Origin: Escherichia coli
Lineage (GTDB): Bacteria; Pseudomonadota; Gammaproteobacteria; Enterobacterales; Enterobacteriaceae
Direction: 5' to 3' (one strand)
DNA length: 1,241 bases
Assembly (NCBI RefSeq): GCF_003334765.1
Contig: NZ_QOWT01000080.1
Part shown: piece by piece, positions 1 to 1,241 of the stretch
How positions within the stretch are numbered: position 1 is the stretch's first letter
Layout of the letters: each line of letters starts with the position of its first letter
Position numbers and translations under genes: made by a program
Notes under the pieces: generated by a model
What the model was told of the DNA's origin: nothing
The model's input: the letters and a program-made list of their open reading frames with translations, nothing else
The model's database searches: none

Positions 1-15
1 AAATGTTCGTCTCAT
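1..15 (-). CDS. insI: IS30 transposase, first 5 codons only (MRRTF); the CDS continues off the left edge of the window
   Basis: ATG at 13-15 on the minus strand followed by AGA CGA ACA TTT; matches the remembered IS30 transposase start MRRTFTAEEKA. The symbol insI is the E. coli K-12 name for the IS30 transposase. Confidence 0.6.
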
Positions 16-51
16 TCAAAAAACCTCCGCAACCCCATGTTTTCACATAAC

Positions 52-77
52 TGTTGCGTTGACCAATTGAATCTACA
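52..77 (-). repeat. IS30 left terminal inverted repeat (about 26 bp), outer end at position 77
   Basis: Terminal TGTAGATTCAATTGGTCAACGCAACAG on the minus strand; the sequence changes abruptly at 77/78 into IS3-family orfA coding sequence. Exact IR length is recalled, not measured. Confidence 0.6.
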
Positions 78-340
78 GTTGCTTTTTTTAATATATCTCG
101 CTCAAGGCGAGCTTCATTTAACGCCTTACGCAGTTGCAGAATTTCAGATTCCAGTTCAGCCACCGTGCGGGAACCAGGAGTACCGAGCCCTTTTCTGGCG
201 GCGGTAACCCATTGTCCTAAAGTGCCTTCAGGAAGAGATAATCGGGAAGCGCCTTCACTGATCGAAAGTTGATTTTCAAGAACCGTTCTGACAGCTTCGG
301 CTTTGAACTCTTTAGAGTAACGTTGGGTTTTTCTGCTCAT
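78..340 (-). CDS. IS3-family (IS600-like) OrfA, N-terminal 88 codons, truncated by IS30. The reading frame stays open through the IS30 inverted repeat to the window start, giving a chimeric tail VDSIGQRNSYVKTWGCGGFLNETNI...
   Basis: ATG at 338-340 (minus strand); translation MSRKTQRYSKEFKAEAVRTVLENQLSISEGASRLSLPEGTLGQWVTAARKGLGTPGSRTVAELESEILQLRKALNEARLERDILKKAT, with a helix-turn-helix-like N-terminus and a heptad-Leu coiled coil typical of IS3-family OrfA. Strong AAGGAG Shine-Dalgarno 6 nt upstream of the ATG. Confidence 0.8.
83..89 (-). other. A7 slippery run (TTA AAA AAA GCA), the likely programmed -1 frameshift site that would join orfA to orfB
   Basis: Seven consecutive A on the minus strand, in the ILKKA segment at the orfA C-terminus. 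IS3-family elements use A6G/A7 slippery heptamers here to make the OrfAB transposase. The IS30 junction is only 6 bp downstream. Confidence 0.5.
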
Positions 341-404: not shown

Positions 405-420
405 GCGTATCTCGGCATCA

Positions 421-1241
421 ATGCGCAAACAGCCTGATGCCCTTCGCTACGACCGCCAAACTATTTTTGGCCTTGTCCGTGAGCGTCCGATCGACATTCA
501 CAAAGATCCCGTAGCACTGAACAAATATATCTGCGAATACCTGACGACAAAGGGCGTGTTTGAGAATGAAGAAACAGACCTGGGCACTGTTGATGTTCTC
601 CAGTCATCAGAAACACAAACTGATGCAGTGGAAACTGAGGTATCTGATATCCCAAAAAATGAAACCGCGCCGGAAGCTGAACCATCTGTAGAGCGTGAGG
701 GGCCGTTCTATTTCCTCTTCGCAGATAAGGACGGAGAAAAATACGGTCGCGCAAACAAACTCTCTGGTCTGGATAAGGCACTGGCTGCTGGCGCCACTGA
801 AATCACAAAAGAAGAATATTTTGCCCGAAAAAATGGCACATACACGGGCTTACCGCAAAATGTAGATACCGCTGAAGATTCAGAACAACCAGAGCCGATA
901 AAAGTTACCGCTGACGAAGTAAACAAAATTATGCAGGCAGCCAATATCAGCCAGCCTGACGCCGATAAGTTGCTTGCTGCATCACGTGGTGAATTTGTTG
1001 AAGGGATTAGTGACCCGAATGATCCGAAATGGGTTAAGGGGCTCCAGACCCGCGATTCTGTGAACCAGAACCAGCATGAATCGGAACGGAACTACCAAAA
1101 AGCGGAACAAAACAGTCCAAATGCGTTACAAAACGAGCCAGAAACGAAACAGCCTGAACCAGTAGCGCAACAGGAAGTGGAAAAAGTCTGCACCGCCTGC
1201 GGTCAGACCGGCGGCGGCAACTGCCCTGATTGTGGCGCGGT
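421..1241 (+). CDS. recE: Partial CDS with no stop in the window: acidic protein with a CxxC-x7-CxxC zinc ribbon, probably the central region of a prophage RecE-like (exonuclease VIII) protein. Likely 5'-truncated by the IS insertion, so possibly a pseudogene or gene remnant.
   Basis: Frame 1 is open from 316 to 1241; the first in-frame ATG is at 421. Translation MRKQPDALRYDRQTIFGLVRERPIDIHKDPVALNKYICEYLTTKGVFENEE...EVEKVCTACGQTGGGNCPDCGA. The frame checks out at every 60-bp line start and the composition is coding-like. There is no Shine-Dalgarno upstream of ATG 421, which sits 17 bp from the IS terminus. The recE assignment rests on remembered similarity to the region upstream of the RecE nuclease domain and is not verified. 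Confidence 0.55.
   Translation, partial: MRKQPDALRYDRQTIFGLVRERPIDIHKDPVALNKYICEYLTTKGVFENEETDLGTVDVLQSSETQTDAVETEVSDIPKNETAPEAEPSVEREGPFYFLFADKDGEKYGRANKLSGLDKALAAGATEITKEEYFARKNGTYTGLPQNVDTAEDSEQPEPIKVTADEVNKIMQAANISQPDADKLLAASRGEFVEGISDPNDPKWVKGLQTRDSVNQNQHESERNYQKAEQNSPNALQNEPETKQPEPVAQQEVEKVCTACGQTGGGNCPDCGA
1189..1233 (+). other. CxxC-x7-CxxC zinc-ribbon-like motif (C-TA-C-GQTGGGN-C-PD-C) within the plus-strand CDS
   Basis: Four Cys codons at 1189-1191, 1198-1200, 1222-1224 and 1231-1233 in the CDS frame, separated by a Gly-rich loop. Confidence 0.6.

Follow-up and report, generated by a model that had tools for sequence, protein, structure and literature searches.

The window analysed here, a 1241-nucleotide stretch of Escherichia coli DNA, is a nested insertion in which a prophage exonuclease gene is interrupted by IS600 and the IS600 in turn by IS30 (exonuclease gene::IS600::IS30). 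The window is 100% identical to chromosomal DNA in 40 complete E. coli genomes. Its extended context was taken from a contig of E. coli ML35 (locus L001), of which the window is positions 8001–9241. Read along the minus strand, the order is prophage exonuclease gene, CGC, IS600 left end, orfA, a run of seven A residues (A7), GCAAC and IS30. An earlier sequence-only reading of the window had proposed an IS30 end nested in an IS3-family element, and this proposal holds: positions 1–77 are the left (IRL) end of a complete 1221 bp IS30 and positions 78–404 belong to IS600.

The left end of IS30 (1–77, minus strand) comprises the IRL, the leader and the first transposase codons, with the ATG at 15–13; the remainder of the element lies past the left edge of the window. 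The 26 bp IRL, TGTAGATTCAATTGGTCAACGCAACA, occupies positions 52–77 on the minus strand (read 77 to 52). Its outermost base is window position 77, and it pairs with the right end (IRR) at 23 of 26 positions. The sequence-only reading had looked to a leftward extension for the rest of IS30, the displaced orfB and a 2 bp target duplication, and each of these is found in ML35. The 1221 bp element there is complete and carries a 383-residue transposase ORF, which scores 277 bits against the NCBIfam IS30 profile NF033563 (cut-off 80) and is labelled by PGAP as an IS30-like element IS30 family transposase. The target duplication is AC. Its left copy lies at 78–79 (minus strand) and the other copy is found past the IS30 right end, beyond the window edge, so that the flanks in ML35 read ...GCAAC/IS30/ACAGCG. 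In the window itself the minus strand at the junction reads ...GAT ATA TTA AAA AAA GCA AC/T GTA GAT TCA ATT GGT C, where the slash marks the IS30 boundary.

The left 327 bp of IS600 occupy 78–404 on the minus strand, with the terminal repeat beginning TGAGGTAGCC at 404, as judged from the reconstruction and the PGAP name. One copy of the 3 bp IS600 target duplication, CGC, is present at 405–407 on the minus strand. In ML35 the IS600 orfB and right end, followed by the second CGC, lie directly beyond IS30, so that CGC is found at both IS600 ends. Removal of IS30 and one AC from the ML35 sequence restores a 1264 bp element, TGAGGTAGCC...GTACACCTCA, with TG...CA ends and the CGC duplication. We identify the host element as IS600 on the strength of its PGAP name (IS3-like element IS600 family transposase) and as a member of the IS3 family by its profile match.

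The IS600 orfA in the window (78–340, minus strand; ATG 340–338) consists of codons 1–87 plus two nucleotides and is cut by IS30. Codon 88 is ACA in the native gene and reads ACT here (79–77), the T being where IS30 begins. The restored element encodes a 100-residue OrfA and has an orfB that is open in the −1 frame. Against the NCBIfam IS3 profile, OrfA aligns over positions 1–86 and the −1-frame peptide over positions 86–369, the latter with a score of 354.7 bits (cut-off 160). The A7 run (83–89, minus strand; A AAA AAA in the orfA frame) is the sole slippery motif in the orfA/orfB overlap and is the place at which the profile changes frame, and we therefore take it to be the programmed −1 frameshift site of IS600. 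A predicted hairpin downstream of the slippery run, starting 2 nt past AAAAAAAGC, is weakly supported (−13.1 kcal/mol; z = −1.69; 13 of 200 shuffled sequences fold equally well). The coordinates proposed earlier for the IS30 terminus (77), for codon 88 as ACT and for the A7 run (83–89) are correct. The distance of 6 bp given between the run and IS30 is not: it is 5 nt (GCAAC), the duplicated AC being nucleotides 4 and 5 after the run.

The remainder of the window (405–1241, plus strand, continuing past the right edge) is that part of a Qin-like prophage 3′–5′ exonuclease gene which lies downstream of the IS600 insertion, as assigned by PGAP and its open frame. The part upstream of the insertion lies on the far side of IS600::IS30 in ML35, at 5529–5918 of L001. 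We note that the exonuclease protein encoded at window positions 1190–1241 contains cysteine pairs (C-T-A-C-G-Q-T-G-G-G-N-C-P-D-C-G) with the look of a zinc ribbon.

The IS30 insertion separates orfA from orfB by 1221 bp, in keeping with the earlier proposal that an insertion at the orfA/orfB junction uncouples OrfA from OrfB. As a result, this copy of IS600 cannot make OrfAB, the active transposase. The earlier description of the host as a remnant unable to make OrfAB is thus right about OrfAB and wrong about the remnant, since the element is complete and can be restored to a 1264 bp IS600. IS30 sits at the foot of the predicted hairpin and so comes between the slippery run on one side and the hairpin and orfB on the other. 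Conceptual translation gives an altered product, OrfA′, of 122 residues, the final 34 of which are encoded by IS30. OrfA′ could still be produced and the IS600 ends remain intact; OrfA′ may have some role, and the composite may be open to mobilization in trans. We also observe that the OrfA′ frame crosses the IRL and overlaps the IS30 transposase gene, out of frame with it, for about 40 nt before it terminates (window positions 1–122, minus strand, continuing to the left), and thus transcription and translation of IS600 could in this orientation run over the start of the IS30 transposase.

The order of the two insertions was addressed with a synthetic empty-site query that joined the exonuclease gene and the left part of IS600 directly to the first part of orfB, omitting IS30. 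This query matches AST198 over 923 of 923 nt in a single piece and H3 at 99.7%. The presence of the exonuclease gene::IS600 arrangement without IS30 in these two strains indicates that IS600 was resident first and that IS30 arrived later; gene conversion, with another IS600::IS30 as the donor, is a less likely route. In EH031 (NZ_AP027162.1, 2293799–2295324) the same query matches in two pieces across 1526 bp rather than 923 bp, which indicates about 600 bp of other DNA inside the IS600 copy of that strain.

We surveyed 5426 E. coli genomes, counting a genome where a 100 bp query was covered over at least 80% of its length in a match. The window junction (IS600 plus IS30 IRL) is present in 1284 genomes, the uninterrupted IS600 site in 1602, a synthetic opposite-orientation query (IS600 ...GCAAC plus IS30 IRR) in up to 854, IS911 plus IRL in 1315 and IS911-like plus IRR in 1217, the junction counts being approximate because IRL and IRR have sequence in common. 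The 100 bp IS600/IS30 junction is found at 100% identity in K-12 KpLE2, in the Qin-like prophage and on plasmids, and the opposite-orientation IS600 junction is also found at 100% identity. In two chromosomal contexts (L005, near hchA, and L006) the opposite orientation is a true insertion of the form orfA...AC/inverted IS30/AC...orfB. Recombination between two IS30 copies, with inversion of the segment between them, was considered as the origin of the opposite orientation and was rejected for both of these loci, where the two IS600 halves and the AC duplication flank the inverted IS30.

The sequence-only reading had drawn a parallel with an IS30-in-IS911 arrangement in K-12, and the parallel holds. 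In the IS911A of the K-12 prophage CP4-6 the junction is ...TTAAAAAAGGCTAC/IS30/ACCGCG (ATA TTA AAA AAG GCT AC/IS30/AC CGC G), which places the insertion at the nucleotide homologous to the IS600 site; the orientation and the AC duplication are also identical. A second K-12 locus, in KpLE2 of MG1655 (near fecE; L002), has the IS600 orfA at the IRL side of IS30 and an inverted IS911-like orfA, ...TTAAAAAGGCTAC/, at the IRR side, so that each IS30 end adjoins the frameshift window of a different IS3-family element. The equivalent region of J53 (L003, 2568–5164) contains, in order, an IS911-like orfA (plus strand), an inverted IS30, an IS600 orfA with its left end (minus strand) and an IS911-like orfB (plus strand). 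The KpLE2 arrangement could have arisen through two frameshift-window insertions followed by IS30-mediated deletion or recombination between two IS30 copies, after IS600 had entered the IS911-like orfB.

To look beyond E. coli, one genome per species and a set of metagenome contigs were scanned with the IS30 terminal repeat TGTAGATTCAATNNGTCAAYGCAACA. The flanks outside each end were sorted using hidden Markov models built from the OrfA and OrfB translations of the flanks themselves, a collinearity test and flank identity. An IS3-family frameshift window holds 25 of the 41 IS30 ends that could be assessed in the species-representative genomes (27 when judged by eye) and 115 of the 145 ends in the metagenome contigs; these proportions overstate the number of independent events, since the samples are redundant and include many E. 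coli-like contigs, and counted per distinct site rather than per end the share is nearer one half. The register at these window ends is constant, with the orfA side ending ...AAR GCN NN/ and the other side starting /N GCN. A single nucleotide position accounts for 140 of the 146 ends located in IS3-family elements, and the other six lie elsewhere in such elements. Both orientations are well represented among the window ends (78 same, 67 opposite). The flanks fall into 19 distinct clusters on the orfA side and 15 on the downstream side, with hosts that include Yersinia, Silvania, Erwinia, Kluyvera, Marinomonas, Shewanella, Woeseia, Saccharospirillum and Agaribacterium. The suggestion made from the sequence alone, that IS30 has a recurrent target at this position, is thereby borne out: IS600 has been entered there in both orientations, and the site is also used in IS911 and across about 19 distinct IS3-family flank types.

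Several individual loci from the census deserve mention. The six IS3-family ends outside the window are at L022 655, L055 3760, L064 7991, L036 1956, L092 150 and L108 8779. One of these is in an IS600 orfA at ...GAAATTCTGCAACT/, some 18 codons 5′ of the frameshift site, and three are in the orfB catalytic domain; such positions may be secondary hot spots. In Marinomonas sp. MED121 (L028, 2556–4423) two IS30-type terminal repeats at a frameshift window are 1868 bp apart, compared with 1221 bp for IS30, which suggests either a longer IS30 relative or an IS30 with extra DNA. At L031 and L042 a flank of about 120 nt beside the IRR is an IS911-like orfA that is shifted towards A/T, reads ...IKIQNKILKKT and contains internal stops. 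This flank is identical in assemblies labelled Chryseobacterium sp. 18061 and Citrobacter sp. 18056, and it may represent a decayed copy or shared contamination. More generally, L029–L031, L037 and L042 (labelled Chryseobacterium, Collinsella and Citrobacter) carry near-E. coli IS911::IS30 junctions on short contigs. E. coli-like junctions in unrelated taxa are likely to reflect contamination or very recent transfer, and the end counts are not counts of independent events.

IS30 is known to favour palindromic hot spots some 24 bp long and to enter them at the central 2 bp (Olasz et al., 1998, in the form in which that work is cited in PMC9333248). Its transposition follows a copy-out-paste-in route, in which a nearly palindromic target is attacked with a 2 bp stagger (PMC9333248). 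The target in IS600 has this form: it is the near-palindrome TTAAAAAAAGCA-AC-AGCGTATTTT, with IS30 at the central AC and both half-sites fitting AA..A.GC. Across the frameshift-window sites the half-site consensus is TAAAAAArGCnrC/ on the orfA side and AAnwAnGCnGy/ on the downstream side. The quasi-palindrome arises from the conserved IS3-family codons L-K-K-A-x-A-x-F (TTA AAA AAR GCN NNN GCN NNN TTY), which centre it on the codon between the two alanines, and this codon is the one split by IS30. IS30 sites outside frameshift windows have AA at −11/−10 and G at −5, and the third K-12 copy of IS30, in ydbA, has the same half-site, TTAATAAAGGTA[CT].

The match was evaluated with a weight matrix trained only on IS30 half-sites outside frameshift windows (initially 12 and later 38), which avoids circularity. 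The target comparison thus uses our own empirical matrix from a small site set and not the published 24 bp consensus. The 12-site matrix ranks the true IS600 position first of 1234, chooses the correct dinucleotide in IS911 and, in phage lambda, picks the AT at 33290–33291. This last choice agrees with the coordinates of the lambda hot spot LHS, which lies within 33244–33498, has a left part ending at 33290 and is entered by IS30 at its central 2 bp (PMC9333248). With the 38-site matrix the true IS600 site is again first of 1234, at 17.5 bits, and the runner-up position scores 7.9 bits; the background, 24 346 E. coli positions, does not rise above 11.3 bits. The true dinucleotide also comes out on top in each of seven distinct IS3-family windows that were reconstructed, with scores of 10.9 to 17.5 bits.

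In our view, hot-spot targeting of the IS3-family frameshift window by IS30 is the most consistent explanation of both the nested insertion and its recurrence, and we place its probability at roughly 0.88. Under this explanation, IS30 entered an IS600 already in place, at the central AC of a near-palindrome made by the frameshift signal and the surrounding conserved codons, a stretch that fits the known preference of the IS30 transposase almost optimally. Such a match would make the IS3-family frameshift window a natural, multi-copy and mobile hot spot for IS30, and would account for the same spot being struck repeatedly in both orientations. Ordinary IS30 targeting would thus be acting on sequence that IS3-family elements keep for their own frameshifting. 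The explanation draws directly on the observed anatomy of the locus, the recurrence of the junction and the agreement with a target model from which window sites were excluded. We infer from these that recognition by the transposase, and not selection, fixes the position of insertion.

The exact identity of the 100 bp IS600/IS30 junction across KpLE2, the Qin-like prophage and plasmids could be attributed to one ancestral IS30 insertion that spread by descent, horizontal transfer, gene conversion or composite transposition, with no target preference being involved. The composite retains intact IS600 ends, which makes movement in trans possible. However, IS30 also sits at this dinucleotide in the opposite orientation with an IS600 half on either side, IS911 and about 19 flank types of distinct sequence from many taxa carry it at the homologous dinucleotide, and strains with an empty IS600 at the same exonuclease locus exist. 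The use of both orientations and of so many host elements excludes a single ancestral event as a full explanation, and we regard it as extremely improbable. Spread of this kind may nonetheless have contributed on a smaller scale: same-orientation identical junctions at different IS600 loci could reflect gene conversion or composite trans-mobilization and not new insertions. IS30 activity is low, with 0 new insertions recorded in E. coli mutation-accumulation lines (PMC5009759).

The position of the insertions bears on two further explanations. If IS30 inserts nearly anywhere and copies inside other insertion sequences simply persist as harmless, then insertions into such elements should be neutral, and the six IS30 ends found at other positions in IS3-family elements would be expected. 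Yet this neutrality would span the whole IS3-family element of about 1.25 kb, whereas 140 of 146 ends are at one nucleotide. Moreover, non-IS3 sites have the same AA...GC half-site, and the matrix from unrelated sites predicts the position. Survivorship cannot account for a placement that is exact to the nucleotide, and as the sole explanation it is very unlikely; because insertions of one insertion sequence into another are probably neutral, it probably does add to their abundance by inflating their frequency. Alternatively, IS30 might be directed by DNA or RNA structure, or by bound OrfA or OrfAB, at the frameshift region and not by primary sequence, given that the site is at the foot of the predicted hairpin and the region is quasi-palindromic. 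Against this, the downstream sequences vary widely among the targeted IS3-family elements, the hairpin is not significant compared with shuffled sequences (13 of 200 as stable), and sites without any IS3 context (K-12 ydbA, lambda LHS) have the same half-site. Direction by structure or protein is unneeded when unrelated sites have a common half-site, and we consider it highly improbable.

Hot-spot targeting of the frameshift window offers a natural explanation for the unusually long palindromic target preference of IS30. It also accounts for the many enterobacterial copies of IS911, IS600 and related IS3-family elements that are annotated as split pseudogenes beside IS30; such loci would be better described as nested elements than as unrelated transposase fragments. 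The landing position of IS30 in a new genome or plasmid becomes predictable, and pairs of IS30 at frameshift windows can drive deletions and inversions, as the KpLE2 arrangement suggests. The system is a clean natural case in which a functional site of one transposon serves as the target of another. A bolder reading, which we hold only tentatively and consider rather doubtful, is that IS30 is a specialized parasite of IS3-family elements whose target specificity has been tuned to the frameshift window TTA AAA AAR GCN NNN GCN. If so, IS3-family copies would offer IS30 landing pads that do no harm, exist in many copies and move horizontally. The insertion would disable the host OrfAB while sparing the ends and an OrfA-like regulator, and the outcome would be a safe haven combined with competition between transposons, not a chance match.

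Parts of this picture are already known, namely the piecemeal annotation of the nested element in the window, the K-12 parallels and the targeting of hot spots by IS30. What appears to be new, in the literature searched, is that the frameshift window is a general IS30 hot spot across taxa that holds most of the sampled ends. Our search of open-access literature found no statement of the IS3-family frameshift window as an IS30 hot spot; PMC9330008, PMC5009759 and PMC3032704 give insertion-sequence counts and nothing on this site.

Comparison with known systems indicates both common features and differences. The lambda LHS (Olasz et al., 1998, as cited in PMC9333248) resembles the IS3-family window in being a near-palindrome of about 24 bp that is entered at its central 2 bp with a 2 bp duplication, in either orientation and repeatedly at an exact position. 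Its left half, ATAAAAGTGGCGAT, also resembles the IS3-family sequence TTAAAAAAGGCTAC. Unlike LHS, the IS3-family window is part of the conserved recoding signal of another element, and by virtue of belonging to the recoding signal of a mobile element this hot spot is multi-copy, mobile and present in many species. It also differs from LHS in holding most of the ends among the IS30 copies sampled. Closer to the present locus, the K-12 insN-insI-insO arrangement (IS911A::IS30A, CP4-6) matches the window in the homologous nucleotide, the AC duplication and the spacing of 5 nt after the run. The KpLE2 cluster of IS911-like, IS30 and IS600 sequences has the identical IS600/IS30 junction, but its other IS30 end adjoins an inverted IS911-like orfA, whereas at the present locus both IS600 halves surround IS30.

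A parallel from outside the IS30 family is provided by IS4321 and IS5075 (IS1111 family), whose insertion sites are the terminal repeats of Tn21-family transposons. Like IS30 here, they prefer a target sequence that is conserved in another transposable element. They differ from IS30 in transposase family and chemistry, in using a terminal target and not an internal frameshift site, and in being orientation-specific.
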